DNA from: Macrostomum hystrix
Lineage: Eukaryota > Animalia > Platyhelminthes
DNA length: 64,000 nucleotides
Direction: 5' to 3'
Assembly (NCBI GenBank): GCA_950097015.1
Contig: CATNEN010000001.1
Location: 15,128,001-15,192,000, forward strand
The notes beneath the pieces are model-generated. The model had not been told where the DNA came from. It made no database searches and was given only the letters and a program-made list of their open reading frames with translations. Positions 3,991 to 63,786 of this stretch are shown piece by piece. How positions within the stretch are numbered: position 1 is the stretch's first letter; every line of letters starts with the position of its first letter. The translations under genes were made by a program, and so were the position numbers.

Positions 3991-4592
3991 CCAATAGTTC
4001 CAATCTCCCCAACAGCATAGTTGAGCTGACCAGGAACCTCCTGAGGTTTTCAGTGCGCATAAAAGGTACTCCAGGGAGTGAGTTACCAAACTAACAGTTT
4101 GCCTACAGATAAAACAAAATTAAGGTGCCGTCAGGCAGGCTAAGGCTGGTTGCAGTAAAACAGTTAATTCTATTCTTGCTCGCTTAGATATTTGCTCGAC
4201 CATTTTCGCGACATCCTCAAAGACCGCTTGCTCGCTCACTGCGGGTAGCAAGAAATTAGACTTATTTTCGTCCCTGTCTTGTGTGTCCTTCACCTTATCT
4301 GACTAGCCGGCTTAATGGGATCATGATTTGATTACTACTCGGAGTGGATGTCGGGACCCCATCTCCTCTCGTCTCCCTCGTTGATAGCTGTTTCTACATT
4401 TTACAAACGTTTTGCCTCTCCCCCAGAGGTGACCATTATTATTTTTATTCCCCGAGGATAAAGTTGCAATTGGTTTGTTCAAAATGTGCATGTCCAAACT
4501 GCTCTACTAACTAAGTAGAAATACTAGTTTTTTACTATAAAAACTGCTAAAAATGTTTTTACAGTTTCTTTACACGATTCAGCCCAGTGAAA

Positions 4593-8246: not shown

Positions 8247-8789
8247 TGTTCTCAACAAATAACTGACCACTGCTGTACCAAGTTGCACACTGACCGATGT
8301 CCCAAAATCAGTTATCTGCCTGACCTCCGACTGCAGAAGTCACGCTATTGGCTGCCCAATCCGGTGTCATGGCCGGGACACAGGCTGAGGTTGGGGCAGG
8401 CAAAACAGCGAAAAATAATCAAGAAAAAGCAGCTATCAGTTGTAGGTCGGGCTCGAATCTAAATAGGCTGTTGCATCAGAAATTTGAGCGAGTCCCATCA
8501 GCTGCAACAGGAGAGAGCAGAGGCTGCGACCTTGCCCAGCACATATTGACTCCGAAATACCGCGAGAGTGAGAAAGACTTGAGACCGCGTGAGTCAAGGC
8601 GGCCATGGCGTGCAGACAATATCTGCCTACTGCCGTGGAGGCAGTCTGGCTCTGAATATTAATGACCTCTATGCTGTCCACGACCCTCGTCGCCTGTTTG
8701 ACCCGTCTTCGTTAAAAGCGTCCAGCCGAAGTTCGCTTTCTGCGCAGCGGTCGGTCGGGTCGGGAGCGGCTGCTATACAGTTGAGGAGA

Positions 8790-14786
<5,997 letters not shown>

Positions 14787-27093: not shown

Positions 27094-28086
27094 CTATTGC
27101 AATTTCAATAGAGAGACTGAGTGCGAGCGAGGAAAATATGTTTCATCGATGCCGAAAAAGGAAAAGCACAGGTCGTAAGCGAGCGCCACAAGACCCTGCG
27201 ACTTGTCGTACTTACCAATGTCGGCTTCGAGTTTCTCCAAGAACTCGAGAACAGACGGCGGAGCAGTCTCCGAGAGTTTTTCCGCAAACTCCTGAGCGGA
27301 CACATCGGTGAAAAGATGGACGCCGTCACGAAGGCAGGCAAGTAGTCTCTTCTTGACAATGCGAAGGAGTGGACAAAATATAGCGTTAACAGCCTTGCGG
27401 TGATGCACGATGGTCTGCAAGGCTTGATAAGTGAACGCCGCGTCGTCGTTAAGTGTCGGTTTCGGCTTCTTCTTGATCATGTACGAATACAAGTTGAGAG
27501 CCGTCTCGTGAAACGGAGCGTTGGCATCAATGACCTCAACGACCTTGGCAGGCAGACCCTGCAGCCACTCGTTAATGTCGGTGGCGGACAGCTGAATCGG
27601 CTCGCTGTTGTGCAGAAGTACCTTCTTCGGGTCGAGGCACTTACTGACCATAGCGTCGAACATGTCCTTGGCGAGAGATTTCGGATCCACGAACCCGGCC
27701 ATGTCGGGCACGTTCCTGTTGCGCTTAGCGAGCGCGATCATAGACTCACGACCAGAAAAGTTTCGATTGTGCGGCATCTGAGTAGAAAGCACAGGCCTCA
27801 TGGCCTCATACTGCGAAGCACGAGAGTTCATCTTGAGCGGATTGAAAGAGAAGTCATCCACACCGATCTCCAAGTCGGTGTTGTGGACTAACCACTCATC
27901 ATGCGCTTGGCAGGCGCGCGAACTCAATGGAAAGGCCGAGTCGACGACGTGCTGCACATAGTCGGCGCCGAGGGTCTGGTCTCCATGGACGTCGACCTTC
28001 TCGAGCTTGATAGGTTCGGCCTCGAGCGCGACCATTTGATAACCCTGAAAGGACAAAAGACCCGCGTTGGCAAGGACGGTCTCAAC
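27094..28086 (-). other. Endogenous viral element: N-terminal part of an alpha-like (Martellivirales; Virgaviridae/negevirus-like) RNA-dependent RNA polymerase
   Basis: Stop-free ORF with PVLST.MP, ES..ALAKRN.NVP, YSYMIKKKPKP.L, Y.ALQTIVHH.K.VNAIFCP, and motif A LEADIGKYDKSQ, typical of tobamo-like RdRP_2; ends before motifs B and C (no GDD). Confidence 0.88.
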
Positions 28087-29657: not shown

Positions 29658-31699
29658 CTAACTTGATGCTAACTTTCGCAGACGCCGTCCACTGCCGGGC
29701 GTCTCTCGTACATGGTCCGAATCACGACGCACGAGTCCTTTAAAAAATGTGTTAGCTAACCTCCTGGAAATGCGGCTAACCTGAGCTGGATCTGAAACAG
29801 TTACATCCATGAAAGCTTTAAAAACGTTAATAAAAGATCGGACACAATAGTTGACGCAGTGGATCTTGACAGAGGAGAAAAAAGCATAGCACAGGCTGGA
29901 GAAAACTAAAAGCCACTCTGGCGGGTGCCGGAGCTTGCCACGAGATAGCAGCGATGTAAATTCGCTACCGCCAGGAAACTCAGTTGCAAATGCTTCAAAA
30001 ACTTCTGGAAGATGCTCTTTAGCAGCAACGTAACCGGAAATATAGTACAAAGAAGCATTCTCCTCATCTGTATTGTGGCTGATCTTGTCTTGAAGCTGAT
30101 CAAACACCTCTAGATCAGAGTCCTTCATCCCATCGGAACAGCATGTCGCCGGCTCATGAGCCTCAAAGCTGTTCTGAAGCGCTCCGTACAATTTCATTCG
30201 GTGCAGCCGAGCACTGGCCATAACTTGCTCGACTGTTATGTAGTAACACCCGCCGTGGCCCTGGCGGTAGAGAGCGAACTCGGCCTCCAATCTGTCTGAT
30301 TGCAGTACACCTTAAAGACAATTTCGTGACCCATTAGATAGCCGTGACCTGCATCCCCACAATTCATTAAATTCATTCCCTAGCAACAATTATTCAAAAA
30401 CTGATTGCTGCATGTAAATAATGCAAAGAACTCACCAAGAAGAACGTAAGAAAATCGATGGTTGGTTAGAAGGTGTCTGCTGAGGCCCACCAGACCTCTT
30501 GTTGTCTGGATTAAAGCGTTGCGCGTCTCTGTGGTGAGCGACCGACCGCGTCCCGCACCTCGTCCACCCGGCATGCGCTCCACCAGTGCGGAGAAATTAA
30601 GTAAATGTGTCAAGCTGCTAGATTCTTCCGACGTAATTGGAGCCCTAAGTTTGTCATTCAAGGCAACGTGTGATTCTGGTGATTTAACATTAACTATTTT
30701 CCAAAAGGTGACCACATGGTCCACAAAGTCGGCTGAGTCATGGCGACCGTTAACACGAAGTGCGGCAACCGTCTTCTCGTTGAAGATGTCGACAACTAGT
30801 GACACCTTTTGTCGCTCCAGTGGAGACGGATTGCACGCGACAGAGTTGACTGAAGTCGGGCGAACTACTTGTCCACGGGATCGCTCCTCGATTTCAACAA
30901 TATCATTCCAGCGTGCTCGGCAAACACGTTCCTGCTTATCTGCTGATGGGTGAAAATCGATCTCCTTGTGCGCTTGAGTGAACCAATTATTTCTTATATT
31001 CTTAAACAAATGCACTGTGTCAAACAACAGAAACAATGGTTTCTCTGCGTCTGCAGGGTTTTCGGCAAGCCATGGTGTGTTTGTGTCGCAATGAAACAGT
31101 TTGAAACAGTTCTGGTTAGTGAAGTGATTATCGCAAATCAAGCTCACAACTGTACCACCACAGCCGTGGACAATTTCAATAAGTCGTACAACCTGTCTGT
31201 GTAAAAAAGCAGGCTGTAAACTATAGATTGGCACAAGTCTGGCAACAAACGCAGGTGCGCCCATAAATGGTTTTACCATAATGGCGAGAATAGTCCGAGC
31301 AAGCTTCTGTGGAACATCCTCAGCAAAGCCAACTACATGGACACCTTTGAGACGAAGTGAAGGTTGCACATACACTTCATCAAAGATGATTGAGCACAGG
31401 CACTGAGACGGTGTGTTGTGTTCGAAATTCGACTTGACAATTTGCTGACAGTCGGTGTCGGTTCCAATGCTGCCAAGTCCACCCAGATGACGTTTGAGAG
31501 TGTCTGGATGTGGTAGACAGGCGAACTCTCTCATTGCACGATAGCCAGCACGACTGGTGAAGTACATTCTGGCAGCTGTCATTATATCATTTGCAGCATA
31601 CCGTACGCCATGATGCTGAACAACACTCAGTTGCAGCTGTCGAACATGTCGAGCAGCAGCTGTGTTGCTGCTGCAGTCCACCTGCAGCTCCACCAAATG
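29658..31699 (-). mobile_element. P-element superfamily (THAP9-like) transposase; complement(join(29658..30310,30436..31699)), 5' exons unresolved
   Basis: HTH region with CLPHPDTL; catalytic IIFDEVYV, LICDN...NQ, FDTVHLFKNIRNNW; ERQKV.L...IF; spliced LG|VLQSDRLE.EF..YRQ..GG.YYI (phase-1 GT-AG intron 30311-30435). Confidence 0.85.
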
Positions 31700-33056
31700 C
31701 TGTTAGGGTGACATTTAACCCCCGGGACGCCCGACGCCCGACGTCTTCGTCAGGGGCGGCTGGGTCGGCAGCGGCGGCAGGGTCGGCAGCGGCGACAGGG
31801 TCGGCGGCGGCGGCAGGGGCAGCAGTGCGTCCTAGTGCACGCAATAACTGCTTGTGTGATCCTATTCCGTGCCGGAATAAGCAATATTGCTGTTCCGGAA
31901 AGTACTGAAGCACCTAAAGGAGAAAGGCAAGTCAAAGTTAAGGCTTTCACTTTTCAAGTCAAAGAAATCGAGGGCTTTGACTTTCGACAGCCAGAAGTCC
32001 AAGTTTAATTTTTTAAGTCTAAGAAATTTAGGGCTTTGACTTCTGATTGCCAAAAGTCCAAGTTCCACTTATTAAGTCTAAGAAATCCAGGGCTATGCTT
32101 CTAGGGCTATCCAGGGCTATACTACGCTGCGACTTTTGGAATTAAATGGAATTAAATTAAAATTCGTTTATATCCAATTTTTTAAAATAATAAAATTAAT
32201 ATTAAAATTAATAACTACAATAATAATAATAACATCAAAATGGTTGTAAAAAAAATTTACATTTCAAAGCAGATCAAATACAGACTTACAGCATCCCCTG
32301 ACGTATAGGCCATGCTTTTGCCTGATGCGCCGGCAGCTTGGGTGATTCGGAGGCACGGGCAGAGCAGCCGCACGCAGTCCTTGGCCTTGCAGGTAATGAA
32401 GCAGGCACTATTTAATGGGCACGTTTGCATGGGAGCCAATGGGCGGCCCATAATTCGATCTAGAGGCAGCGGCCCCACGCGCAATACATCCAGGATGGTT
32501 GCCATGGCGATGCTGATGCTGATGCTGCAAACAAATAGTAAAACTTAATAGAGTATCTCCAGCCTCTTGATTTTGTGTAGCTAATATTATCAATATTACT
32601 TCTGATTGCCAAAAGTTCAAGTTCCACTTTTCAAGTCTAAGAAATTACTCTCAGGTTAATGTAATCTCCTATATGGATACTATGGATATAAGAATTAGAT
32701 AACAATAAAAGACAAGAATGATTTTAAATATGATAGGGGCCTAAATGGGCCATGTTAGGAGCATAAAATCATTATACTACAATCAACCCTCTTCAAATAT
32801 ATCATTTCAATGAATCCCCCTTTGAATATTACAGCTGATGTAATAATCAGTTCCTGTTGAATACATTCAGGTCTAACAATCAATCCCCTTTTGAATAGTT
32901 GCAATTGCAATAATTTAAACCATCTACTGCACACCATTCAAAAGATGATAATTTCTGCAAACAAATAGTAAAACTAAAAGGAGTTATCACCAGCCTCTTG
33001 ATTTTGTGTAGCATTTCATGCATAGCTAATATTATCAATTGCTTTTAATTGCTTTT

Positions 33057-44894: not shown

Positions 44895-47800
44895 TTGACT
44901 TACTTGACTTAGCGGCAGGGGGCCTCCATGACGGACGCAGCGAGGAGGCGGCTGGTGCCGCCCATATCGCTAACCCCTGGCAGCCAGACGGCCTCCATCG
45001 AGGCGGTGCCGCTCAGGGTGGTCCGTCGGTCGGTTCCGCCGCGCGATCTTCCTCGCCATAGGCTGGGAAGAAATCAGCTCGGCCGGTATCCCGGAGGAAG
45101 TGGGCGAGCTGTGGGATGTTCTCGGGCGAGCAGGCTTCGGCAAGAGTCGGTGCCGGCCCGAGATGCTTTAGCCTAGCCCGGGTGAAGGCCGGGCAGTGGC
45201 AGATGAAATGTTCGGCGTTTTCACGTCCGGAGCAGCAGAAGGGACACGTTTCCTCAGGCACGTGGCCTTGGAGGTAGCGGTGTCTGGTGAAGCAGCCATG
45301 TCCCGAAAGGGCCATGGTGACTGCTCTCAGGTCTCTGCGGTTTAGCCTGAGTAAGGCCTTACGCAGGTTACTTGAGGGGGTTGGCACCGCAGCCCTGGAC
45401 TGGCGACAGTTCAGGGTGCTGGACCACCTCCTCCGATGCTGGGTCTCCATCCAGCGGTTGATGCTGGAGTTGACAACAGAGGCGGGGATCGGGGATTCCG
45501 GGCCCGGGCCCATCAGGGAGCTGGCTGCTCCAGCCTTTGCAAGCTGGTCCGCCATCTCATTCCCTGTGAACCCGGCATGCCCAGGGATCCACATCAGCTC
45601 CACCTTATTAGACTGCGCCAACCCGTTTAACTGGGTGTTGCAGTCCAAGGTGGTTCTGGAGCGAGAGGTGCAGCGGCTGAGGGCCTTGAGGGCTGCTTGA
45701 CTGTCGGAGTGAAAAAAGATCCTCCGACCAGCCAGCCGCCTCTGGCGCAGCTCAGCCGCACAGAAGCTGATGGCGAGCACTTCGTTTTGGAAAACGCTAG
45801 AGCTCTTGCCACAGTATTGGGAGTGGGTCCAGAGGACCTCACCACCCGAGGCGACGCACACTCCGAATCCCGATTTACCGTTCATCAGAGAGCCGTCAGT
45901 GTAACAGTGGACTGCCGGGTCATCCCAGCAGTCCTTTACCTCATTACGAGGGGAGATGCTGACTTTGTACCTGTGGCTCCGGAGTAAAGTGGCCGGGGCC
46001 CCGTCCGAAAGGATGGTGAGCCCTCCGCACTCGCCCAGAGTTTTCAGGCAGAGGTCAGAGTGAGGCAGAAGGGAGCGCTTCGAGAAGGCTCGCGAATTCT
46101 GGAAGTAGACACCCGCATCAAGAAGACGTCGGGTGGACTTTGCTGCTTCCCCCTTGACGAAAATGTCAATGGGTGTAGCGTTGAGGAAAGCATTCATGCC
46201 TTCGAAGGGAGTGGAGGGTGGGGCGCCCAGCGTCATACGACAGGCTCTGCCCTGCACCCTATAAAGCGCCTCCAGGTTTTTCTGGATGCCCATGGCGCTG
46301 GCCCAGATGAGGCCAGCGTAAGCGACGGACGGTCTAATGATCGCCGTGTAAATCCACCAAAGGTTCTTGGGGGTTAGCCCCCAGGTGACTTGCGCCAGTA
46401 TGGCCAGGGCCCTCTGGCCTTTGTGGTGATGTGTGGGGTCCAGTTAAGCCTATGGTCTAGCACGAGACCAAGGCACCGGACCTGCTTTTCCATTGCAATA
46501 TTCTTGCCATAGAGAGTCAGAGGCTTAATGGTCCAGAGCAGTTTGCTGGTAAACATAACCGCGACGGTCTTGGACTCAGAGAGTCGGAGCCCGCATTGGT
46601 CCGCCCAGCGCACCGCCCTGTTGATAAAGCCCTGAATGAGGTCCCTGGTGGTTTCCGCCGAGGGGCCCGCGCAGATGGCGGTCACATCGTCGGCATATCC
46701 CACCTTCAGGACTGGGTCTGGACGAGTGCTTTTCAGCAGCTCATCCATGACGAGATTCCACAGCAGTGGGGTGAGGACGCCGCCTTGGGGCCCTCCTTTT
46801 AGGACAGGTGCCGAGAGCACCATGCCTTCGAGGTGGGCCACCACGTGGCGATTCCGGATCATGTACATGACCCAGCGAACGAGGTGGGGGTGAGTGGCCC
46901 TGGAAACTAGGGCCTTCTCAAAGGCTTCGAAAACAACGTTATCGAAGGCCCCCTCAATATCAAGGAAGACAGCCAGGGCAAAACCGCTGCCCAGTACTGC
47001 CTTCTCTAGAGTCTCCACGATGCAGTGGAGGGCGCTCTCCGTGGACCGGCCCGCCCGAAAGGCGTGCTGGTTTGGCGAGAGCGGGGCCCGCCCTAGCTCT
47101 ACAGTAAGAAGGCGCCAGAGCACCAGTCTTTCCATGAGCTTGAGGCAGGTGGAAGTCAAACTTATCGGGCGATAAGACTTGACCGAGCGATAGTCGCCTT
47201 TGGCGGGCTTCGGGATGAAGACGACCCGGGCTTCGTGCCACAGCGCTGGTACGTAGCCCAGCACGATGCAGGCCCGTAGAAGTCTGCAGAGGAGATGGAG
47301 GAAGCGGCCATTTTTGACCGCTTCATGCAAAAAGGCCGGATAAATACCATCTGGCCCAGGTGCTTTGAAAGGGTTTAATGACTTTGCCGCGCGAACGATG
47401 CGGTCATTCGGGACGAGTGACTGAGCCAGGCCCTGACCTCCACGTGAGTGGTCGTCTGGGCCAAAGTGCGCCGGTACACTCGGGAAGAAATGCCCTAGCA
47501 TAAGCTCGAGCGTTTCCTCCGGGCGCTCCGTGATCGAGCCGTCTGGCTTTTTGATCGATGAGAGCTTGGAGAAGCGGTCGTTGGTGAGCGCCTTTACCAC
47601 GCGGGCCGTGGGCCGCGAGCCCTCCAGCCCTTCGCAGTATTGTCGCCATTTGTCCGCTTTTGCCCTTCTGACCCGGCCCTTAAACTCATGGATGGCGCGA
47701 GTATAGGCCTCTTTGTCATCAGGGTCGTGCGAGGTTTTCAGCTTCCTCTGGAGAGCCTTAGCTCGGCGTCTCAGGACTCCGAGCTCGGGGTTCCACCAGG

Positions 47801-48825
47801 GGGCCGATTTTTTGCCTTTGTAGGCTTTGAGCGGGCAAGCCATTTCGTAGGCCTCTGTGATGGCGCCGCCCAGCAGGGCAGCCACTCCATCTAGGTCCTG
47901 CGTGGTTGCCATGGCCATGGAGGGGTCGGAATCCCGAAGGCCCTCATGCAGCTTTTGGCTGAACGCGGGCCAGTCGGTGTTTCTGACATTACGCCTCCAA
48001 ATAGGCTTTTGCTTCTTATCGGGGGTACCGATGTTGAAGCGAATGAAACGATGGTCCGAGAGCGAGCTTTCGGTCTCCCATACCTCCCACCCCAGCACCC
48101 TTGGGAGGATGCCGGGTGAGGCCAGGGTGACGTCAAGCACCTCAGCCCACCGCCCATTGTCGAAAGTGGGCGTGTTGCCCACATTACAGAAGTTAAGAGG
48201 CGTGCCGCTGACGAAGGCCAGGAGCTCTTCGCCGCGGTCATTGATTTTTTAGCTACCCCAGTGGGTGTGATGCGAGTTTGCATCTCTCGCGAGGAGCAGC
48301 TCGAAGTTTCGTGCCCTGGCGAAATCACAGAGGGCGACGAGGGTATCGCTGACCACGGGGGCGTCGCCTGCCAGGTAGGCGGATGCCACGAGGGTCAACT
48401 TGTTAGGCACAATGTGTGCAGATTGGATGACGCAGATGTCCCCGTTAGAGAGATCGGGTCTCATCCACGCATTTAAGGCTTTTGCGGCATAGATCAGTGA
48501 TCTAGGGCGGACAGAGTCTGCCATGCAGAAGCAGTCATAGCCAGCAGGAATGTTGCTTGGCTTGTTCTTTGATAACCAGGGCTCCTGCACAAGTACAAGG
48601 CCCGGCATCATGCGCTCTGTCGTGCGCATCAGATTTACTGATGCTGCCACGCAGTGCTGGGTGTTAACTTGCAGACATGATATTCCGGGGATCATCATGC
48701 AGGCAGAGGTCTACTTGGAGGGGGACTCAGCCAGAAGGCGGTCCTCCTCCTCCAGGTCGATGTCGGTAGGCATGGGCTCCTCCGTGCCCAGGCCCCGAGC
48801 CAGAGGCGGGAACTCGACGGGGTCA
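44895..48825 (-). mobile_element. 5'-truncated LINE (I group, Loa/R1-like): end of ORF1 plus ORF2 (APE-RT-RNase H-CCHC) with two frameshifts
   Basis: APE LQVNTQH, VQEPW, DANSHH..WGS, SDHRFI; RT KAPGPDGI, YRPISL, FLDIEGAFD, PQGGVLTP, YADD; RNase H YTDGS, SDSQAAL, WIPGH.G..GNE.AD; CPFC...E..EHF.C.C; 12-bp TSD CGCGAATGGATC at 44883-44894 and 48826-48837; short TAAGTCAA(G) 3' tail. Confidence 0.93.
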
Positions 48826-51800: not shown

Positions 51801-52795
51801 CACTTTTATTTGTTAAGTTCTGCTGCTAGTTTCTTTGTATTTCTTGCTTAACAGTGTACTAAGCTCTGCAACTTTTTATGAAGCAACACAGTCACTAATT
51901 TCATTTGGTCTTTAGACCTAGCCTCCTATGCCTAGCCTACTTCCAGAGTCAGAAAGGTGGCTCTGTGTGCCAGAAAGAAATTATAAACAATGTAATATGT
52001 GACATGCACCACCAATATAAGTAACTTTACCATTGAGTCAAGTAGGCTTTGGTAAATAGTTAATAGGGCAAGATCTCAAAAAACCAATGCATACTCTTTG
52101 CACAAAGGCTTCTTTCCAGTGGACCTTGAACTTGAGATCAGTATATATATTAATCAATCACTTAAGAGGGTATTAAACTGAGATTAGTGGCAATCCATTA
52201 GAGGATTAGAGAAGTCCATGCTGGTATCAGTATCAGACAGGCTGATCATCTAGGCAGAACAACTGCAGCTGGACACTGCAGTGTGTCTGGCAGAATAGCT
52301 GTAGCTGGACACTGCAGCATGTCAGTCTGGCCCTGGCAAAGCTGAGCAAACTACCACCCCGAGTGCTGCCAATCTTTGTCACATTCCATGGAGTCCATGG
52401 GTGGCAGAAAGTGTTAATTTGTGAGAGTGAGAAAAAGGGATTTGTGTGCAAGTTTTTAAGTAAATGTTCAATCCTTTATATTCAAGCAAGTGTATAGAAA
52501 TGATGCCCAAGTGCAGGTCTGCAATCTCCACAGACTGTAGTTACATGACCACGATACTTGTGGGAATATATGTGGAATATAAGTGCTATGATTTCATTGT
52601 AGAATATATAAAACTTTATAGTATTAAATAGAAAACAGTTGTCTGTCTACAATATTAAATACTGTGGAGCAATTCTTATAAATTACTTTCTCATTTCCAG
52701 ACAATGTATCGCGGCATCGAACTGAAGCGTGTTGTCAAAGCTTCACTGCAAACTGGCTGTCGTGGGCGACCCAGAAAGATTAAGACAATCATTAG

Positions 52796-55465
52796 CGGCC
52801 GAAATCGAGGCTCAACATCTCGGCACCCTGTTCTCCTAACTATAAATCACTCCCAACAACCAGCGAAATCCCGCCCAGACAGGTAACGATCAACCAACAT
52901 AGACGATCATATCGTCCAGCAATCTTGGTCCTTGTATTGTGCCTATTGGCTACATTGCTGCCCGTTGCTATGTCAACCCCAACTGTGGCACCACCAAATC
53001 AAGAGGACAAACATGTACATCCATTGTATGTCGACACGCCAATGCTGTGTCCATCTAATATTCCGCCTAAAATCTTCACCATACCACAAGAAATCGAGTG
53101 CGAGAAGTTTCAACAACCTAGGCGACAAGTCACACCTATCCGCTTGGAACTCTACAGCACCAATCTTGATACGGCTTCTATATTGATTACGGCATGCCTC
53201 CGTGAGAAATTATCATTCTCTTGTACTAAATCATCCATAGTACGACGATGGAACGATGCCACTATCAAGATTACCCCTCAACCAGTCAGTCAACAAGACT
53301 GCCAAAGGTGGTCAGAAGGCAAGGTTTCACCTGAGGGTGTTCTGAAACTAAAAACGTCTCCAACCCAGACTCTTCGTCGTTACCAATCGGACATTAGCGA
53401 CGCCATGACGACTGAATGCCTCGCAAATCGTCCCTTCGAAACGACAATAACTACAATAATACAGAACATCCCGGCATACGCTCAACCTCATGGTTTGATG
53501 GAGTCTTTATCATTTCCGGTCAAACACTGCAATTACACTACACATACTTGCATACTGGAGACTACTTTTGACCAAATGATTCGATTCAATTTGCCTCTTT
53601 CTATCTTGGCTGCTCCTTGGAAAGACCTCGAACAAAATGCCTTGTTAACGTTAACTACCTCTGGCAATCGTCAACTTCGACTCATTTGGACGATGCCAGA
53701 ACTCTCAGATTGTCGTCTTAAAGCCTTCCGTGTGATGTCCGGACACCTAAGTTCTGGATTTTTTCTCAATGATGACCAGACACTTGGACTTACCTTCGTA
53801 CCATCACCTAAAACGCACCTGTTAACATGCTCAGGATTGCGGAAGACTCTATACCTATCTACCCAAGGAATCTATGTCGCTGTTCTCGACAACCAAGAGA
53901 ACAACTTCACTACCATTCTGCGTTCACAGATTACGAACGCTCCAGTGCTTACTCCGGCAAACCAGCCGACAGCCAGCGACATAGATACCGCCTCAATAAA
54001 ATTAAGACTCAGGCGCTCATCCGCCTTGACACTTCCAACTCCACCGACTCGATCTCCGAATCCAAATAAACAAATACTGGTGACAACGGAGTCCCTGCAG
54101 TCAACTACTCCTTTTGCCGGTACCGAAAGATCTGATCCTACAACTATGATAATACCAAATTCGCTACCGACGACACATTACGACACAGGAAGCTCCGTCG
54201 CATCCGACCCACCTAAAGTTACGAACAGTCCACTTAAGGACATACCGAACTCCACATCTTCGATGAGTCCGCAAACGGTGACAACTGAACAACTGACAAG
54301 TCAACGGATGTCTACCACCACAGTGGCACCGACACATTTGGTGGTGACAAGCACGTCCGACACATCTACACCACCAGCAGAGGTTGTTCCAAGAACTACA
54401 GGCCAAAGGACAGGTGAACCTGTCGGCCCGTATCATACACCGTTCCACGAACCTTCTGAATCACTACCTGACCTACCTAACCTAAGAAGGTTAAAACGTC
54501 AGACGAAAGTAGCTCAGACAACCAACACCACCGATACAGTTAAAACTTCTCAATCACTTGTTTCTGCAGAATTGCTATCGGCACAATTACAAGGCGTCAC
54601 AACAAAATTACATCACGATATTCAAGAGACTCACAACCAGTTGATGAACACGCAATGCAAGATGTACACTCTAAACTTAAAGTACAATCGACAGCTGTAT
54701 TATACAAATCCTACACTTGCCGCACGAATATTACTACAAACTCCATTCGTGCATGCACGTTCCATTGCGGGATACATCTTTGTATATCAGTGTCAACCAT
54801 TGCATAACTTTCGATTTGTACAACCGTACTATTCAACTGGAATGTGTTTTACTCGCCCACCAGTCTCTTTTACCGTTCAAAACCAAACTGCACTCGGTTT
54901 CCTCGATACGACAACTCGCATCGTATCCACTGCGAAACCTATGTTGATACCATGTCCATCAGTGTATCACTACTACCTCCCAAAACAGTCGATGCTCTTC
55001 AGAACGAACCTCAACTTCACCACGTTTACGCCGACTAGTTCTGATTTCACGACAGATGAAACGTACAAACTGGTGGACCTCCAGTCTTCCATTATACAGA
55101 GCATCTTCACCCCACTGGGAGACATTAACTACACGTCACTACGAAGTGCAATCACTATAACCGACCTAATGACACAATTCATACATACACGTGATTTCTT
55201 AGTCACCGTGTTTAAACTTAACAATACTGGCCAATTCAAACTCGGTTTTGATCCTATCAGTGGCCTCGACACACACTCAGCGCTTATGAATCTGTGGTCC
55301 AATTCCCTATTCAGCTGGGAACGCCTTAAGGCGAACCACCAGGAGAAATTTATATTCAGCGCTGCAGTCATTGTCTATGTTGCACTAATCATTTTTCTTT
55401 GCAACATTGGAGCCTCTGTGTCGCCTCCACGCTCCATTTTGGTAGCACACACCGTGTCGCCTTGA
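52796..55465 (+). CDS. env: Envelope glycoprotein, class III / herpesvirus gB-like (frame open from 52796; no ATG before the signal sequence)
   Basis: Hydrophobic signal (ILVLVLCLLATLLPVAMS); Cys-rich ectodomain; RLRR and RLKR furin-type sites; gB-like blocks SAQLQ...L...I......C, NPTLAARILL....ARSIAGYI.V.QCQP, CFTRPPVSF, GFLD...RIV, IPC; N-glycosylation sequons; C-terminal TM FIFSAAVIVYVALIIFL. Confidence 0.8.
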   Translation, partial: RPKSRLNISAPCSPNYKSLPTTSEIPPRQVTINQHRRSYRPAILVLVLCLLATLLPVAMSTPTVAPPNQEDKHVHPLYVDTPMLCPSNIPPKIFTIPQEIECEKFQQPRRQVTPIRLELYSTNLDTASILITACLREKLSFSCTKSSIVRRWNDATIKITPQPVSQQDCQRWSEGKVSPEGVLKLKTSPTQTLRRYQSDISDAMTTECLANRPFETTITTIIQNIPAYAQPHGLMESLSFPVKHCNYTTHTCILETTFDQMIRFNLPLSILAAPWKDLEQNALLTLTTSGNRQLRLIWTMPELSDCRLKAFRVMSGHLSSGFFLNDDQTLGLTFVPSPKTHLLTCSGLRKTLYLSTQGIYVAVLDNQENNFTTILRSQITNAPVLTPANQPTASDIDTASIKLRLRRSSALTLPTPPTRSPNPNKQILVTTESLQSTTPFAGTERSDPTTMIIPNSLPTTHYDTGSSVASDPPKVTNSPLKDIPNSTSSMSPQTVTTEQLTSQRMSTTTVAPTHLVVTSTSDTSTPPAEVVPRTTGQRTGEPVGPYHTPFHEPSESLPDLPNLRRLKRQTKVAQTTNTTDTVKTSQSLVSAELLSAQLQGVTTKLHHDIQETHNQLMNTQCKMYTLNLKYNRQLYYTNPTLAARILLQTPFVHARSIAGYIFVYQCQPLHNFRFVQPYYSTGMCFTRPPVSFTVQNQTALGFLDTTTRIVSTAKPMLIPCPSVYHYYLPKQSMLFRTNLNFTTFTPTSSDFTTDETYKLVDLQSSIIQSIFTPLGDINYTSLRSAITITDLMTQFIHTRDFLVTVFKLNNTGQFKLGFDPISGLDTHSALMNLWSNSLFSWERLKANHQEKFIFSAAVIVYVALIIFLCNIGASVSPPRSILVAHTVSP

Positions 55466-58400
55466 TACGTCGCCTACCTAGTGAAAACGTTGAATCAACA
55501 CCAGCGACAAATCGCAGGAGGACAACGTCGTTCACGTTACCTCGACCGCTCACCCCAACGGCGCCTCCTGTGGAGCTCCAAATGGAAGCGTTAATTCCAC
55601 CACAAGGAAAACGACCAAAGCCACCACCACCAGCTATTCCACAGTGGCCAGCTTCCTACGCTTGCGTCGTCAAACATGTTACCACGGCAACAATGATCCA
55701 ACTGTGGTGCCGAGGTACACAACAAACCCGATATAGATGCACAGCACTTATCGACAGTGGTGCGTCAATCTCTTGCATCTCCTCTGCATTCGCTAAACGA
55801 CTTGGTACCCCGTTGCAGAACACCAATTTGAACGCAGTTTGTGCAGGTGGCCAACAGCTCTCCCTCAACCACAAAACTACTTTTCAAATGGAAATAGGAG
55901 ATAAGGTGCACTCCATAACTGCCTTCGTGCTGGATTCCCCATCATCGGATTATGACCTCCTTCTAGGAGTAGAAACATTCAAGACACTCGGAATCCCACT
56001 ACAATTTGACTATGCTAAGGCAATTGCCACACTTGGCAATGAAGAAATCGCCATGGTCAACGCACTCGCGCCTCAAAATGAGACATCAGCAATGTTAATG
56101 GAGAAGACAACGATTCCTCCGCAATCTGCCAGACGAACAACGTTGATGTTATCAACACACCACACACCTGGTCATCCTGTCTTCTTTGTGCCAAAGGACC
56201 ACACTATACAGAAACACCGATTGATTATTTCATCGAGCTTACTCACCATTAATACAGACGGCAACACAATTATGGTTGAGATTTCTAATCCGTCCTTATC
56301 ACCGGTCACACTACATCCACACCAAGTTGTCGGTAATCTCGCTGATATGCGAGACTATACTATTGTCGATACGGCTGCGACACTCAACCGCCTTGCCGTT
56401 TCGCCGACAACAGAGTGCACAAGAACACTAATTACATCTCAACTTCAAGAAGCCAATGCCCATCTCACACCGGATGAACAAGCTCTGCTCATCCCACTCT
56501 TGATCAAATATCGAGATGTCCTAGCTCTACTACCGACTGATATGGGCTGCACTACTCAATACACTGCCAACATCAGTGTACAACCACACAGCGAACCCGT
56601 CACAGCTCGTCCTTACCCAATCGCACATGGGCTTCAGGAACGATTCGATCAATTGATCGAGAACTTTGTCCAAAAAGGCATTATTAGCCCTAGCGAATCT
56701 GAATATTCCAGCCCTTGTCTGTTGGTAGAAAAGAAAACTCTGGACGACCACGGACGACGACAGCTACGTCTTGTAACTGACTATCGAAAATTGAATAAGA
56801 TCATCAATGCTCCTAGTATCCGTCCGCCGCGAATTCCTGACCTGCTCCACCGCCTGAAAAGCGCAAAACTCTTTTCTCTTTGCGATTTGGCGGATGCCTT
56901 TTATCAAGTCAGGATTGACCCGGAAAGTACAAAATATACCGCATTCATAGCACCAAATGGCCTTCTTTGGGAATTCAACAGACTACCACAAGGCCTCAAG
57001 TCCAGTCCTGGCTTTATGTGCCGACTAGTGGCTCTACTTACCGCCGAATCCGCCAACCAAATCGCCTATTTGGACGACGTACTTTTAATTTCTCAAAACT
57101 TTCAAGAAATGCTGGTCGAATTGAAGCACTTCTTCCAAAAACTACGTCACCATGGTCTTCGAATTTCACTCAAGAAGTGCATCTTCGCCAAAAAGGAAGT
57201 TCAATACCTAGGATTCGTAGTCTCGGAACATGGGATCAAACCAACACCAAGTTTGATTAAGAAGATTAAGACGTTCCCTACACCGACGTCTGTCAAACAA
57301 CTACAATCCTTCCTTGGTCTGGCTAATTTCTATCGCACACATATCCAAGGATATTCACAGATAATCCAACCTTTGTTGGTCGTGCTCAAATCATCGAGCA
57401 AGCCAAAGAAGTTTACATGGACCGACAGTGCTCAATCAGCTTTTGACGAACTTAAATCACTGTTAACCTCCGACATAGTACTAACGCATCCGGATCCGAA
57501 GAAGCCTTACTTTCTACACACGGACGCATCAGATACAGCTATTGGTGCCGTATTATCCCAATTAGACAGCAGAGGACATCAGAAACCTGTGGCATACATT
57601 TCAAAAACGCTCACGAGTACAGAACAACGCTATCCACCAATTGAACGTGAAGCGTATGCCATCTATTGGGCCATTAAGAAACTACACGTTTTTCTTTATG
57701 CCTCATACCTTCCGTTCCATGTCTTCACCGACCACCAGCCACTCAAGAGCATTTTTTCGGACAAACATCCTATTTCTCGCCGATTACAGAAATGGATATT
57801 ACACCTCCAAGATTATAACTACACATTGGAGTATGTCAAGGGAAAATCTAATGTCGTCGCAGATTGTTTATCACGAATTCCAAAAATATGTGGCCTCCAT
57901 TCGGTCACACAATTTGATAAACTACAAACTGCCATCGACGATGACCCTATCTTCAAGATCATCAAAGCGGCACTACTCGGTAAACCAATACAGCAAAAGA
58001 TACCGAGGACAACGCAACGATTTCTTAGACGACAGTTAAAATACTTTTCTGTACAAAACAACACGCTCTATTACGATGATGACAATGGAAACATGCGACT
58101 CGTTATACCACACTGTTATCGAGATGCCTTGTTATCCTCGTGTCAGACTCTGCAGAGACTGACACGCTTCTACTACTGGCCCACTCTCTACAAAGACGTA
58201 CAAACTTTCGTTAATGGGTGTACAATATGTCACCGCGCCAAATCTGGCCCACGACTGCACCCAGAAAGAAAAGCCGTCAAGTTCAATGAAGTCTTCTCAC
58301 ACCTGGCTATCGACATAGTTGGACCTGTACCTCCTGCAAACCGTGATAGAGACATTTTCAAGTACATCCTGACCGCTCAGTGTGGCGTCAGCAAGTTTCT

Positions 58401-59352
58401 CTTCACGATCCCACTATGCGATACTACGACAGCTACAATCTGCTCCAATCTGTTTCGATATGTGTTTTCTGTTGCCGGACTACCAGCCCATATCATCTCA
58501 GACAATGGTCCGCAGTTCATATCACAAGATTATCGCGACTTCATGAACACGCTAGGCATACAACTCATCTACACCTCATACTATCAGCCATCTAGCAACT
58601 TTGTTGAAAGAGCACACAAAACGCTCAAACAAACACTGACAGCATTTGTGCACGACAAACCCGAACTCTGGCTTGAATACCTTCCATCAGTTACGTTGGC
58701 AATAAATACAGCCGTACATGCTCATATGGGTGAATCTCCCTTCTATCTATTCTATGCTCGCGATTTCCTGCCACCTAATGCTAGAATCATAGAGCATCAA
58801 ACTACGGCCTACATGGATGTGATCAAGCCCGTCAACATTACGAGTTCTGCCATTTTACTCGCACGTGATATCGCCATTCAACATCTACACTCAGCAGTTG
58901 ATGCTCGTACTACACGACATAATGAGCAAATGTCTCAATCCACTCCGTTAAAAGTCGGCGCTCGCTGCTATCTAGATGTTTCCGCCACTAAGGCAACTAA
59001 ATTCTCTAATCCCTACCGTGGTCCTATGAGAATACTCAAATGGCTATCACCGCAGAATGTGCTCATCAATGATGTGAACAAGCCTCATGAACAACCTATC
59101 GTGGTACATGCTTCAAAACTCAAACCTTGGCCGAACGATACGCCTCCTGAAGCCATGATACCTGAGTTCACACATTCAACGGCTCAAACACACACTAATC
59201 ATCGAGCGAATCTTACTCGCTCAATTGCGTTGCAAACATCTCAGACGGACATCAAGCAGTATGAGACGGGTGCAGACCGTAATGCAACACCTACAAACAA
59301 CTTGAAAGAAGAGCCTAGATACCAACTACGCTCAAGAGCCGTACCACGATGA
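55399..59352 (+). CDS. pol: Gypsy Pol polyprotein: aspartic protease, RT, RNase H, integrase with GPY/F
   Basis: ALIDSGAS; RLVTDYRKLN, DLADAFYQ, YTAF, RLPQGL, YLDD; HTDASDTAIGAVL, TDHQPL, NVVADCLSR; IDIVGP, ISDNGPQF, VERAHKTLK; YRGP. The HH half of the integrase HHCC finger appears deleted. Confidence 0.95.
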   Translation: MQHWSLCVASTLHFGSTHRVALIRRLPSENVESTPATNRRRTTSFTLPRPLTPTAPPVELQMEALIPPQGKRPKPPPPAIPQWPASYACVVKHVTTATMIQLWCRGTQQTRYRCTALIDSGASISCISSAFAKRLGTPLQNTNLNAVCAGGQQLSLNHKTTFQMEIGDKVHSITAFVLDSPSSDYDLLLGVETFKTLGIPLQFDYAKAIATLGNEEIAMVNALAPQNETSAMLMEKTTIPPQSARRTTLMLSTHHTPGHPVFFVPKDHTIQKHRLIISSSLLTINTDGNTIMVEISNPSLSPVTLHPHQVVGNLADMRDYTIVDTAATLNRLAVSPTTECTRTLITSQLQEANAHLTPDEQALLIPLLIKYRDVLALLPTDMGCTTQYTANISVQPHSEPVTARPYPIAHGLQERFDQLIENFVQKGIISPSESEYSSPCLLVEKKTLDDHGRRQLRLVTDYRKLNKIINAPSIRPPRIPDLLHRLKSAKLFSLCDLADAFYQVRIDPESTKYTAFIAPNGLLWEFNRLPQGLKSSPGFMCRLVALLTAESANQIAYLDDVLLISQNFQEMLVELKHFFQKLRHHGLRISLKKCIFAKKEVQYLGFVVSEHGIKPTPSLIKKIKTFPTPTSVKQLQSFLGLANFYRTHIQGYSQIIQPLLVVLKSSSKPKKFTWTDSAQSAFDELKSLLTSDIVLTHPDPKKPYFLHTDASDTAIGAVLSQLDSRGHQKPVAYISKTLTSTEQRYPPIEREAYAIYWAIKKLHVFLYASYLPFHVFTDHQPLKSIFSDKHPISRRLQKWILHLQDYNYTLEYVKGKSNVVADCLSRIPKICGLHSVTQFDKLQTAIDDDPIFKIIKAALLGKPIQQKIPRTTQRFLRRQLKYFSVQNNTLYYDDDNGNMRLVIPHCYRDALLSSCQTLQRLTRFYYWPTLYKDVQTFVNGCTICHRAKSGPRLHPERKAVKFNEVFSHLAIDIVGPVPPANRDRDIFKYILTAQCGVSKFLFTIPLCDTTTATICSNLFRYVFSVAGLPAHIISDNGPQFISQDYRDFMNTLGIQLIYTSYYQPSSNFVERAHKTLKQTLTAFVHDKPELWLEYLPSVTLAINTAVHAHMGESPFYLFYARDFLPPNARIIEHQTTAYMDVIKPVNITSSAILLARDIAIQHLHSAVDARTTRHNEQMSQSTPLKVGARCYLDVSATKATKFSNPYRGPMRILKWLSPQNVLINDVNKPHEQPIVVHASKLKPWPNDTPPEAMIPEFTHSTAQTHTNHRANLTRSIALQTSQTDIKQYETGADRNATPTNNLKEEPRYQLRSRAVPR

Positions 59353-59853
59353 GCAATTATTCGCGCTATGAACTCGATACGATCGACATTCTTTAAATTC
59401 GTACATGTTACCTTCTACGTTACCCATATTTTTATTTTTTGTTATAATTTCTTTCCCTTCTTCACCCTTGATGTTTGATATAGAATACCATCATTCCTCC
59501 ACACATCTAATATCTATCTTCTATAGTGCACATTATATGCCTTGATATCACTTTTGTCAATCCAAAACACAAAAAACTACAAAAAATACCACTTTTCAAT
59601 ACACATTATTTAGTTTCTCGCTTATCCTATTTCTTTTCATAATTATAGATAATTTTATATATTACCTAAACTCGACATGCGGCTTCACCTATATTTATTC
59701 GCTACCTTTATTACCTCCTCATACATATATTACTCAGCTACGACTATTTCGAAGACAGACCTCTTCTCCTTTACACTTGTTCTAAACATTTTTTCCAATA
59801 TCTTTTCTTTCTGTCCTTTATTCCACATTCGCCTCATTGAGGCTCGACCGTGT

Positions 59854-59941
59854 GACTAATCTGATGACCTGGCGATTGACTAACCTGATGACCTGGCGAT
59901 TGGCTAACCCGATGACCTGGCGATTGGCTAACCTGATGACC
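59854..59941. repeat. 24-bp tandem repeat (G(A/G)CTAACCTGATGACCTGGCGATT), ~3.7 copies, in the element's 3' region
   Basis: Directly visible. Confidence 0.85.
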
Positions 59942-60213
59942 CGAAGTCTCACCGAATACCGCTGAAGTCGACACCGTGGCCTACACTGACACGCTGTCAT
60001 TCATCCAGCTATCGACTTCATCCCATACCGTCTTAGCGTTTACACCGACAGCGGCACAAGCGTCTCTCCCATCAATCAAGTCTCTCTGCCCGACTCCTGC
60101 AATTGCGATCTCTCGTGTCCGACACGAAGTAGAACCAGAAGCCTCATTTCAACGTGGTGGCCCTGAGAAGGGCCGTTTTAACGTTCACAATGGGCTAACA
60201 TCATACTGTGCAG

Positions 60214-60492
60214 TCAACAAAGCGACCCCGCAGCGAAATCGGCACCGTCTAGAGCAACTGCCGGACTAGCCGACCGCTGCTCTGGATGATGGGTATTCCG
60301 CCGTGGATATCGACATCTGCAGCCACAGCAGATGCACACCCACACGACCAGACTGACTAAGATGAAGGCGCCTAACAGCGCCCACAGGCTAATCAGCTGC
60401 CACTCGACGATCTGCAGTCGCTTGTCGAGACGCTCGACCTGAACACCGAGATCTGTTAAAAGCCAGCGCAGATTTGAAATTTGGTCTTGCAT
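60214..60492 (-). CDS. Putative small antisense transmembrane protein (92 aa) of the Gypsy element
   Basis: ATG start; heptad-like N-terminus; ~22-aa TM (LISLWALLGAFILVSLVVWVCI); CCGCRCR Cys cluster plus basic residues; TATAAA on the minus strand ~85 nt upstream. Confidence 0.55.
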   Translation of the reverse strand: MQDQISNLRWLLTDLGVQVERLDKRLQIVEWQLISLWALLGAFILVSLVVWVCICCGCRCRYPRRNTHHPEQRSASPAVALDGADFAAGSLC

Positions 60493-61053
60493 TGCAAGTT
60501 GAGAAACAGTTTAACTTTTAGAAACTCGCTAGAAGTCAAATGTTGCACGCATAGAGCCCCACGTTTTTCTGTCCCTTTATATCACTTTTCGTCGCTTTAA
60601 TCCAAACCTCTCCTTTCCTTTACTTTCTAACTCAATAAACTTAACTGGACATGTACATTACTCGCGCACATAGTCTATGGCACTTCTCTGCGCTTCGCTT
60701 TATCTCTACCCCACTCCCTTTGTGCACCCTCCTTGACCCTGTCTAAGGTCTTGTATATGCCACTTGTTTTGACACTCCTAATCGATCGTGTTTTTCTATC
60801 ATATTCTTATACCAACTATGCATATAATCTTTTGATGTCACCTTACATTTAATGCTCCTTACAAATACTGCAATGCTATGCTACGTTTTAAATTTTTACG
60901 GAATGACCTTTATCTTTAGGCGTTTTGTCATTTTCCTATCTTTTGAAACCTGTTTCGAATGCATGCTATATCATTTTTTCTCCTACCCTACACTATTTTA
61001 CCTAATAATTATCAACATTTTGTTTCTTGAGCTCGGAGGACCTTCGCTTCTGT

Positions 61054-61071
61054 AAAAAAGGGCTAATGAAG
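61054..61071 (+). other. Polypurine tract
   Basis: AAAAAAGGGCTAATGAAG immediately 5' of the LTR's TG. Confidence 0.65.
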
Positions 61072-61467
61072 TGTTACAATTTAAACTATGCGATTTTTAC
61101 ATCTACGTGCGATTAGAATATGCAGCTCTCCTGCGCGAGGATGCATTTGCAGGAGCTCTAGGATTAGCCTAGAGACTCCTGCCCTATGGCAGCCTTTGAC
61201 CGGATGAGTATAAAAGTTCTTGCACTGAGAGAAAGTAGCCCGACCGCCCCGCTCGCCCGTTCCTTCTTCGCTTGCTATTCAATCTCCTAGCTAGATCCGA
61301 TATCTATTAGTCGCTAGCCTTTGCTATCCCTGGCTAGCCCCTGCAAGATCCAGATAATTAAGAATACCTTATTGAAATTGGAATTGTGACTCCTGGAAAC
61401 TTCACCCAGATCTTATCTTGAACCCTTTTCCATATCTTGGTTACTGACTCAGGATCCGTGAGTAACA
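61072..61467 (+). repeat. 3' LTR (396 bp)
   Basis: Terminal inverted TGTTAC...GTAACA; internal TATAAAA at ~61209; preceded by a PPT and not followed by a PBS; no second copy seen in the window, so the boundaries are inferred. Confidence 0.7.
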
Positions 61468-61766
61468 ATCAAATACTTGTGCTTGGGAATTACCTTCTCT
61501 CAGTGATTGTAATAATTGTAATAATTTATAGTGAGTTGTCATCTTTTAATTGTTTGCCGTAAGACCAACAAAATATAATCCGATTGAGAGTATAAGACCG
61601 AAAGTGAGTGCAACATCAGGAAAAGATAGTCGATTTTCCACGCCTCCTCATTACTTAGAAATAGCCGTGAACGATTGGCTCTCGTCAAAGACAACTAGTA
61701 AAGATAATAAGAATACTCATTAAGCTAGACATTGATAGACCAGAGACGAATCTAAAATATTTCACT

Positions 61767-63786
61767 GTGTCCGAAACTACTCCTGTTCCAGTGGAAGCTA
61801 GCACTGAGAACGATGTCGGTATGCCTGAGTCTTTTGCTCCTCCAGTAGAAGATGTTGAATGGGTAGATTTTGACAGCTTTGCTGAGAAATACAGAGGCAG
61901 TTACGAGAAGCATTTTCTCTTAAATCTGTGTTCCTCTTGCTATGAGCACGAAGGTGTATATCGATGTGTTACTTGTCGACTTAGCTTATGTGCCAGCTGT
62001 AAGAATGAGACGCATAAAAAGTTTTCAGCCCACAAGTTTCTCATGGAATAAGGAGAGTCTAATGTTTCGGGAACTGGATGCTACTCACGATGCTTTTGAA
62101 ATGTTTTGCTGCGCTTCTAGTAAATTGAATCTAAATGTCTGTGCGGCTACAAAAGTTGACCTTATAGATCTGGCTGGAAGCGTAAAGGTCGTTTTTATTA
62201 CCTGCGACTCCTGTGATCTTATTGGTGCACTCCTTTCCCAGGGGTTCTTCCCTTGTTGCGAAGGGTCAAAGCCTGATTCAGATGGGTATGCATTCTTTTC
62301 TTTTACCTTTTTGTCCCTGCTAGACAGTTTGTGTATGACTAGGCAGTTGCCTGTTCACAGAGCGGTTAGTACACTGCTCATTGGGCCAACTCTGGGACAA
62401 GGTACATATAATTTGGCTCTTGTAAAAAGCACTTATCAACGCATTCAACGACATGATGTTTTGCTGCGGTTTCGCCACCTGCAAATGGCCTCAGCAAAAT
62501 GGCCAAATAATTGTCTTCTCTGTCCAGATAATCACGCTGTGCGCAAAACTGTTGTCTGTGCAGATGCTCTATTTGGTTGGCAGCGCTTTAAAGCCAGGGG
62601 GCGTACACAACTGGAAATACCATCGCCTTTTGTGTGGCTCAAATATCACAACTGGTGGAGAAAAGTTTTGCTACCTGGAACAGTGCCTTGAACACTTTCT
62701 GCGAAACGTCAAAGTGTCTAAGGAATTACTTGTCGTATATGACGTGGGTAAGTTTATTATTATTTTATAAAATGCATACAATCTATGAAATACTGTTGCT
62801 TGTGTACAGTTATATGACAACATGACTTACTCTTTATCCCAATTCACAGGCTGTCGCGTATCCAGCCGGGTTACGTCCGCTGTGCAATAAACGCTTTTTA
62901 TGCTCTTGGTCACCTGCCCAGTCGTCAAAAAAAGTTTTCTGTTCGCGTTACTCCAGGCGCAGGTCTCTGCGATGAAGAGAATACTGAGCGAGCCTGGTCT
63001 CAACTCAGGCCGTTCGGTAAGTTTTTAAAGTACATGCGAAAAGACCGACGAGCGCAATACATGGCGCATATTCTATACTTTTTTAATGCACAACAGCTTC
63101 TTAGCGCTTCTGGGTGGTTTACACAACGTATTAAGCTTATGGTAGGTGCGGGAAAAAGCATTCTAAGTGAGCTAAAAGAGCTACAAAGCCAGTCTGCGAT
63201 TTTGCAGCACTCGGGGGTCCTAAATGACAGTCTGGTCATCTCTGAGGATGAAATTTTGGATTTAGGCTCCCAATGGTATGAAGATTCCCTCCGAGTAGCT
63301 GTACACAACTCGGAAGATGATATCCTATGTGAGCTACGCGCTTTTGCAGTGCACAGAGATCATTGGAGTAAACAGGTTGGTAAGTCGGTTGGCCAAAGTC
63401 AAACCAGAATGTGCTTGCGAAAGGTTAAAAGTTATGCATCCGACATGAAGAAACTCTACGCTCGTCTTCCAATTGAAGACAGAGCTTCTTTCGATGAATA
63501 TAAAAAGCCGCGTAGTGCGAAATATGAACATTTGTCTGGAACCGATCTTTCCATCCGATTTCGTCAGCGGGCTATCGACGTCAGTAACAAGTATAAACGC
63601 CTAAAAGAAGAAGCGCATATTATTTCAGATGAGTGGGTTGACCTTCAGGTTAATTTGCAGAGCCTCTGTGATGACTTAGCGAATCAGCCGGGCTTAGCCG
63701 CTCAATTTCGGGATTTGTTTAGAAGACTGCTTGAAGTTTCAAGTAAAAGCGTGACTGATGCTGTAAAATATGTTCTTTGCGAATAA
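61767..63786 (+). pseudogene. Decayed KDZ (Kyakuja-Dileera-Zisupton) transposase with B-box and CxC Cys clusters
   Basis: B-box C..C......RC.TC...LC..C....H.....H; CxC-like IDL.G......TC..C....LLSQGFFP; CLLCP...ADALFG..R.K; YDVG; FYALGH....Q..FS.R..PGAGL.D.E..ER.WS.L...G..LKYM; frameshifts and an apparent internal deletion. Confidence 0.78.

Follow-up and report, generated by a model that had tools for sequence, protein, structure and literature searches.

An envelope gene (env) placed ahead of pol has been in print since 2019, when the polyprotein of the planarian element Burro was reported to include env between gag and pol in a shared frame, presented, in the available text of PMC6431247, as the first case. 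According to the available part of Chary and Hayashi (eLife 2026, PMC13524379), "ancient errantiviruses" with the order GAG-ENV-POL and an ENV of the herpes simplex virus (HSV)/glycoprotein B (gB) type occur in Platyhelminthes, Nematoda and Bryozoa; nine of the elements are from flatworms, one of them from Macrostomum lignano with 16 copies (Platyhelminthes_Rhabditophora_Mlig_errantivirus_2), 51 ENV matches in ENV-POL order were found in the M. lignano genome, and the entry mechanism is described as unknown. Flipped order of env and pol was also noted there for non-canonical nematode endogenous retroviruses (Sacco and colleagues, 2022, doi 10.1099/jgv.0.001739, as cited in PMC13524379), and the accessible portion of 10.64898/2026.03.22.711591 describes a single 2,828-amino-acid (aa) Gag-Pol-Env polyprotein in Atlas virus (Belpaoviridae). 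Here, a stretch of 64,000 nucleotides of Macrostomum hystrix DNA (GCA_950097015.1, contig CATNEN010000001.1, positions 15,128,001 to 15,192,000; the whole stretch is called the window) was analyzed. It very probably holds a 5'-truncated, frameshifted and integrase-damaged copy of a Ty3/gypsy element, with a gB-type env before pol and inserted in a KDZ transposon, whose intact relatives likely encode one Gag-Env-Pol polyprotein predicted to cross the endoplasmic reticulum (ER) membrane twice. The window copy is one more family, as a defective copy, in the published group, and the layout that the first-pass annotation of this DNA had treated as a surprise is an already published one.

Like the ancient errantiviruses, in so far as the accessible text of PMC13524379 describes them, the window element combines a Ty3/gypsy pol with a gB-type env ahead of it; their gag, upstream of env, is deleted in the window copy and present in three relatives (P0001, P0007 and P0003; proteins are given by their P numbers). 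Its long terminal repeat (LTR) is 698 bp long versus the 864 bp listed for Mlig_errantivirus_2, and the sequence resembling a primer-binding site (PBS) in window-related contigs differs from the PBS listed for that element; the two were therefore assigned to different families. The length of P0001 would fit between the LTRs of Mlig_errantivirus_2, a comparison by length alone. Burro (GYPSM1), a giant gypsy-like planarian element, has env in frame between gag and pol as P0001 does, and env and pol are also in frame in contigs related to the window; the Burro open reading frames (ORFs), as described in the available text, are 4,873-5,140 aa long with MATH, BIR, ankyrin, BCL2 and dUTPase cargo, whereas P0001 has 2,852 aa, and none of these cargo domains was detected by Pfam in the window or in P0001. 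The nematode endogenous retroviruses come from a different host phylum. Tas, a BEL/Pao element of Ascaris, carries a gB-like env. Tas and Atlas resemble the window element as retroelements with captured viral fusogens, but they belong to another superfamily (BEL/Pao) and have env after pol, and the Env of Atlas is of class II. The earlier choice of Tas as the comparison was not borne out, as the window pol is Ty3/gypsy by Pfam and by its Protein Data Bank (PDB) match; only gypsy-type Pfam domains were found, and env lies before the protease rather than after the integrase. The nematode elements of Sacco and colleagues reportedly have a continuous gag-env-pro-pol ORF with a Nyamiviridae-like glycoprotein.

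The main text of PMC13524379, figures aside, does not discuss membrane topology or stoichiometry and makes no mention of a polyprotein, single ORF, in-frame, frameshift, mucin or cytoplasmic tail, and the main text of PMC12801592, on M. lignano LTR elements, does not mention env. A literature search returned no paper devoted to membrane topology, stoichiometry or the mucin-like insert, subjects that Sacco 2022, Grohme 2018 or figures may cover.

Results

The env frame (52796-55465, forward strand) comprises 889 codons from stop to stop and lies directly upstream of the frame for protease (PR), reverse transcriptase (RT), RNase H (RH) and integrase (IN), as first annotated. It contains two hydrophobic segments (Table 1), 17 Cys residues, nine N-glycosylation sequons and two furin-type sites (RLRR at residue 404 and RLKR at 565), between which lies a 165-residue stretch rich in Ser, Thr and Pro. 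No ATG occurs before residue 59 (52970), where the signal-like stretch ends. When env alone was compared with Pfam, Glycoprotein_B (E 3.4e-5) and Monjiviricetes_fusion (E 1.4e-4) were matched, both below the curated cut-offs; single-sequence searches gave no match in the PDB and none in a word-indexed protein set restricted to lengths of 465-1481. A search of 1.84 billion representatives yielded 76 relatives at E <= 0.001. A profile was built from the window ectodomain and 68 of these, leaving out six long or chimeric proteins (P0007, P0029, P0042, P0050, P0063 and P0075) together with P0048 and P0056. All 54 PDB matches of this profile were herpesvirus gB (best E 3.5e-23, profile positions 4-447 of 557), and in the comparison with the gB proteins of Kaposi's sarcoma-associated herpesvirus and Epstein-Barr virus a basic site was aligned to their furin loop.

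The alignment-based model of Env had a mean predicted local distance difference test (pLDDT) score of 69, with values of about 90 in the folded parts and below 50 in residues 330-526; the fold from the single sequence alone was uninformative (pLDDT 34). The model matched HSV gB with a Foldseek E of 8.7e-17 and a VIA Z of 13.4 over 440 residues, at a root mean square deviation (rmsd) of 9.9 Å. Among viral models, nyamivirus, chuvirus-like and herpes glycoproteins were matched, Midway nyavirus G with E 1.1e-21. By profile and predicted fold, Env can be securely classed with the gB-type class III proteins, as a putative fusogen, in agreement with the first-pass annotation, which had recognized gB-like blocks and proposed this structural comparison.

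The pol frame (55330-59352, forward strand) was free of stops over 1,340 codons, and Pfam gave the order PR, RT, RNase H, integrase zinc finger, integrase core. Its best PDB match was Ty3 Gag-Pol (E 1.8e-93), and it was 57% identical to P0001 over 1,360 columns; the PR-RT-RH-IN order with a Ty3-type RT places the element in Ty3/gypsy (Metaviridae). No hydrophobic membrane segment was detected by the hydropathy scan within pol or after the integrase. The window was also compared, at a cut-off of 80% identity, with contigs of public sequencing runs (eight matching sets from two studies, none recorded as RNA; run labels X1-X5), of which the best-matching may be the source of the window itself. 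The ORF had been described as uninterrupted, which holds for stop codons but not for the integrase, where 12 zinc finger residues are missing relative to P0001. At this site, extra letters were present in contigs of X1 and X5, and contigs of X2 and X3 were window-like.

The best env match, P0001, was a protein of M. lignano (PAA86625.1 / UniRef100_A0A267GKR7; 44% identity, E 9e-184) whose record is annotated merely as a hypothetical protein or RNA-directed DNA polymerase. It is a single chain of 2,852 aa in which a CCHC knuckle (at 396) precedes env (about 665-1503), followed by PR, RT, RH and IN. In its cluster are three full-length sequences of M. lignano, which come from four contigs and differ from P0001 by 1 and 15 residues; a search with the P0001 env part among long proteins returned P0001 itself only. 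The folded halves of env are 42% and 57% identical between P0001 and the window copy, and pol is 57% identical. Both have the signal, the mucin-like insert, the furin-type sites and the transmembrane segment, but P0001 is unbroken and has gag, whereas the window copy is broken and has none. All 15 Cys of env residues 61-872 are retained in P0001, and its counterpart of the insert is a stretch of 52% Ser/Thr/Pro flanked by RQSR and RIRR. At the Gag end of P0001, P0007 and P0003, a basic stretch is followed by a homologous hydrophobic segment and, where the ectodomain begins, by a conserved motif. A gag-env-pol polyprotein that contains an internal signal as well as a transmembrane segment, as had been suggested for the intact element, is thus represented by the single ORF of P0001.

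In a crude motif scan of the 76 env matches, 18 carried a CCHC knuckle ahead of env within one chain, 14 a protease-like motif after it and six both. A further 118 long pol relatives were collected, six of which matched the env profile, three of them ahead of pol and three behind the integrase. The RT-RH tree, built with FastTree, was restricted to 57 of the 105 usable sequences, namely every one of the 12 with env and the 45 best-scoring ones without. In this phylogeny, which the first-pass annotation had called for, the window grouped at support 1.0 with P0001/77/78, P0083 and P0084 and with no other sequence. Each of these has env before pol in one chain; the remaining env-before-pol chains were placed elsewhere. 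Env-before-pol order is accordingly supported as a family trait, shared by the five nearest pol relatives. The named relatives by themselves point to a Macrostomum-type flatworm as the likely host. P0119, P0126 and P0148 are long single chains with a profile-matching env after the integrase (gag-pol-env in one ORF), and P0092 (4,057 aa) has env before pol plus ankyrin repeats. P0003 (gag and the front half of env) and P0083 (the back half of env and pol) lie on one 9,072-bp contig filed under "Kangiellaceae bacterium", which most likely represents animal sequence misassigned to a bacterial genome.

The limits of the insertion were given by an empty-site joint, 52827 to 61765 with four shared letters, present in all four runs compared. 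The retroelement insert occupies 52832-61764 between two CTGT copies. The first-pass annotation had placed the element at 52792..61467; an insertion does lie there, but both edges had to be moved. With the left edge at 52832, the first 12 env-frame codons belong to the KDZ transposon; the linker remnant that follows is open and without an ATG, as first described. The KDZ flanks stay in one reading frame when joined across the empty site; this KDZ (Zisupton-type) DNA transposon was seen in its empty form in four of four runs and filled in two of four. No second LTR copy was found within the 64-kb window. Of the hallmarks of an LTR element, the window copy has the 3' LTR, the purine run and the 4-bp duplication; the 5' LTR, PBS and gag are missing.

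The LTR start (about 61067) was deduced from the purine run and an imperfect terminal inverted repeat (7/9). Past the LTR end at 61764, other contigs in all four runs continue into a PBS-like sequence, presumably a candidate glutamate tRNA primer-binding site, and a short LTR variant joins 61084 to 61701. Two other readings of the right end were discarded: TGTTAC...GTAACA ends (61072-61467) as the insert end, since the right edge is 61764 and 61467 lies within the LTR, and 61468-61764 as a permuted 5' leader, since other contigs turn PBS-like beyond 61764. The 3' region had no sizeable accessory ORF, no Rfam match and no Pfam match for its longest ORF (109 aa). Contigs near-identical to 59548-61764 were found in X1, X2, X3 and X5, several with internal deletions (61084 to 61701, 60832 to 61028, 58198 to 58854); in X5 their depth was about 120-147 versus 9 for pol, where contig depth is not equal to copy number. 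They may be non-autonomous derivatives mobilised by the family of the window element.

The env and pol frames of the window overlap by 136 nt, with pol in the -1 frame, and were first annotated as overlapping genes, which would be joined by a programmed -1 frameshift or by re-initiation. Likeness to P0001, however, follows the env frame until the end of the transmembrane segment and resumes in the pol frame two residues on, and in X1, X2 and X5 the joint lies in a single frame in related contigs of about 88% likeness (X4 has no coverage there). The overlap is, on these sequence comparisons, a frameshift specific to the window copy, near 55410; it is present in the window-identical contigs of X1 and X2. 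A programmed frameshift was rejected on the same single-frame contigs and on the only slippery-type heptamer in 55251-55470, which is out of phase and upstream of the transmembrane codons, and separate genes are very improbable. The copy is truncated and nested in another transposon, which might suggest that its env-pol order is a local accident, such as a two-element junction, a rearrangement or an assembly chimera. This is barely credible and is refuted by the existence of single-chain relatives: env comes first in all five nearest pol relatives, an X5 contig about 88% alike runs from env into the protease, and window-identical contigs in X1 and X2 cover the env-pol joint and bridge the left junction, which is therefore not an assembly artefact. 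With regard to how this one copy arose, a left end without an LTR beside a complete 4-bp duplication, and three letters past the LTR end that match the spacer and PBS start of other contigs, would fit a repair-mediated patch-in of partial cDNA. Such an origin is considered unlikely relative to placement by integrase with later deletion, as the right end falls exactly at the terminal CA of the LTR and a 4-bp duplication with terminal CA fits integrase products.

Since its 5' LTR and gag are lost, env and pol are frameshifted and the integrase carries a deletion, the window copy is judged from its sequence to be defective, without a promoter, gag, a single env-pol frame or a whole integrase finger. 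The proposal that it is potentially infectious accordingly found no support. "Intact errantiviruses", as the available text of PMC13524379 defines them, have uninterrupted gag, env and pol, a full-length integrase and two LTRs, and the window copy is not one of them.

Table 1. Features of the retroelement insertion and its target in the window (positions count from the first letter of the window)
Feature	Position	Strand	Evidence
KDZ-type DNA transposon gene, 5' part, interrupted	52704..52831	+	Pfam; resumes at 61769
Left CTGT of 4-bp duplication (likely target-site duplication)	52828..52831	+	Empty-site joint in 4/4 runs; letters checked
Gag-env linker remnant: open frame, basic stretch, without ATG	52832..52918	+	Frame scan; relatives P0001, P0007, P0003
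Putative internal signal, first hydrophobic segment, residues 42-60	52919..52975	+	Hydropathy 2.65; signal peptidase cleavage inferred
gB-type class III fusogen ectodomain (predicted)	52976..55351	+	Profile, model and fold matches; Cys kept in P0001
Ser/Thr/Pro-rich (47%), predicted-disordered insert between RLRR and RLKR	54005..54499	+	Composition; model
Env transmembrane segment, residues 853-871	55352..55408	+	Hydropathy 2.66; retained in P0001 and P0084
Frameshift of window copy between env and pol	55409..55414	+	Likeness to P0001 switches frames; contig comparison
Cytosolic linker and pol: PR (DSG 55753), RT (YLDD 57067), RNase H, integrase	55412..59352	+	Pfam; PDB match; P0001 alignment
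In-frame integrase zinc finger deletion, 12 residues including both His	58141..58149	+	Gap versus P0001
3' untranslated region, 1.7 kb	59353..61066	+	Longest ORF 109 aa; purine run before LTR
Tandem repeat in 3' region, 24 bp x 3.7	59853-59941	+	Repeat scan
3' LTR, 698 bp, TG...CA	61067..61764	+	End shown by contigs; start inferred
Right CTGT of 4-bp duplication	61765..61768	+	Empty-site joint; letters checked
KDZ transposon gene, continuation: B-box-like, CxC1, KDZ domains	61769..63786	+	Domain matches

Elsewhere in the window, two host genes were found on the forward strand, a COQ5/UbiE methyltransferase (4551-5770) and an ionotropic glutamate receptor whose exons are very long (8583-14786). 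On the reverse strand, a 330-codon frame at 27094-28086 matched the polymerase of alpha-like plus-strand RNA viruses (Pfam RdRP_2, E 3e-44) and is, by its sequence, identified as an endogenous RNA-virus fragment in host DNA. The reverse strand also has a P-element/THAP9-like transposase remnant (29658-31702), which matched TNP-like RNase H at E 2e-7, and a non-LTR retrotransposon (45013-48710) whose endonuclease, RT and RNase H are spread over several frames.

Discussion

Several observations weigh against a gB-type Env that is threaded twice through the membrane as part of one Gag-Env-Pol chain. Global TM-scores of the Env model to gB are low (about 0.33 by query length, rmsd 9-15 Å), in part because the model holds about 200 disordered residues. 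The signal segment of P0001 is below the hydropathy threshold used, though it is aligned with that of the window. No related contig reaches the DNA 5' of env in the window element's own family, so the gag-env fusion is deduced from relatives that are 42-57% identical. An env of this type can also occur in another order, as three long relatives carry a matching env after the integrase, and a single ORF is compatible with spliced messages and does not exclude them.

The topology proposed for intact members is based on the two hydrophobic segments that bound the Env ectodomain, and viral polyproteins with internal signals are a known precedent for it. Gag would be made in the cytosol; the internal signal would then open translocation, and signal peptidase would free the N-terminus of Env while Gag stays anchored by the signal. 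The Env ectodomain would enter the ER, be glycosylated and be cleaved by furin at either side of the mucin-like insert. Transfer would be stopped by the second hydrophobic segment, leaving PR-RT-RH-IN as a cytosolic tail of Env, from which the retroviral protease would later release Pol. Budding particles would carry Env trimers and gain entry to neighbouring cells (germline or stem cells) through class III fusion. The window copy itself would be incapable of this route on its own. Threading of this kind would yield equal amounts of Gag, Env and Pol and would therefore couple enzyme packaging to the envelope. It is possible, if somewhat doubtful in its full extent, that in intact members Gag is split off by signal peptidase rather than by a frameshift or splicing and is held at the membrane, that Pol enters the particle as the tail of the Env trimer, that the furin-released mucin-like insert masks the fusogen until export, and that transposition is obligately enveloped, from cell to cell.

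A strict 1:1:1 ratio of Gag, Env and Pol is unusual for retroelements, and the single ORF might instead be expressed mostly through differently spliced messages, for example with env spliced out to give Gag-Pol, the threaded polyprotein being minor and transposition mainly intracellular. The gene model P0007, which omits most of the ectodomain, would agree with this, but it is an automatic model fused to laminin and gives no evidence of splicing. The pre-protease linker (55564-55793) was matched at about 86% by contigs in X1, X2, X4 and X5 with unlike letters upstream and high depth, far above that of env in X4 and X5; these contigs, with little or no env, may be env-less relatives or a diverged sister family. 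The unlike upstream letters are perhaps a diverged linker under the 80% cut-off, and contig depth does not measure copy number. Env also retains all 15 of its 15 Cys, with the two hydrophobic segments still in frame, and expression mainly by splicing is regarded as quite improbable.

A frameshift in a single copy can disguise one polyprotein gene as separate overlapping env and pol genes. What makes the group interesting is the question of how one Gag-Env-Pol chain would be threaded through the membrane, cleaved and packaged, and whether a gB-type Env works without gH/gL partners. If the proposed route were true, no particle could carry reverse transcriptase without the fusogen, an assembly logic unlike that of any studied retrovirus. 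Since the copies in M. lignano, a laboratory flatworm, are compact, cargo-free and near-identical, the question of threading and packaging would be observable in living animals.

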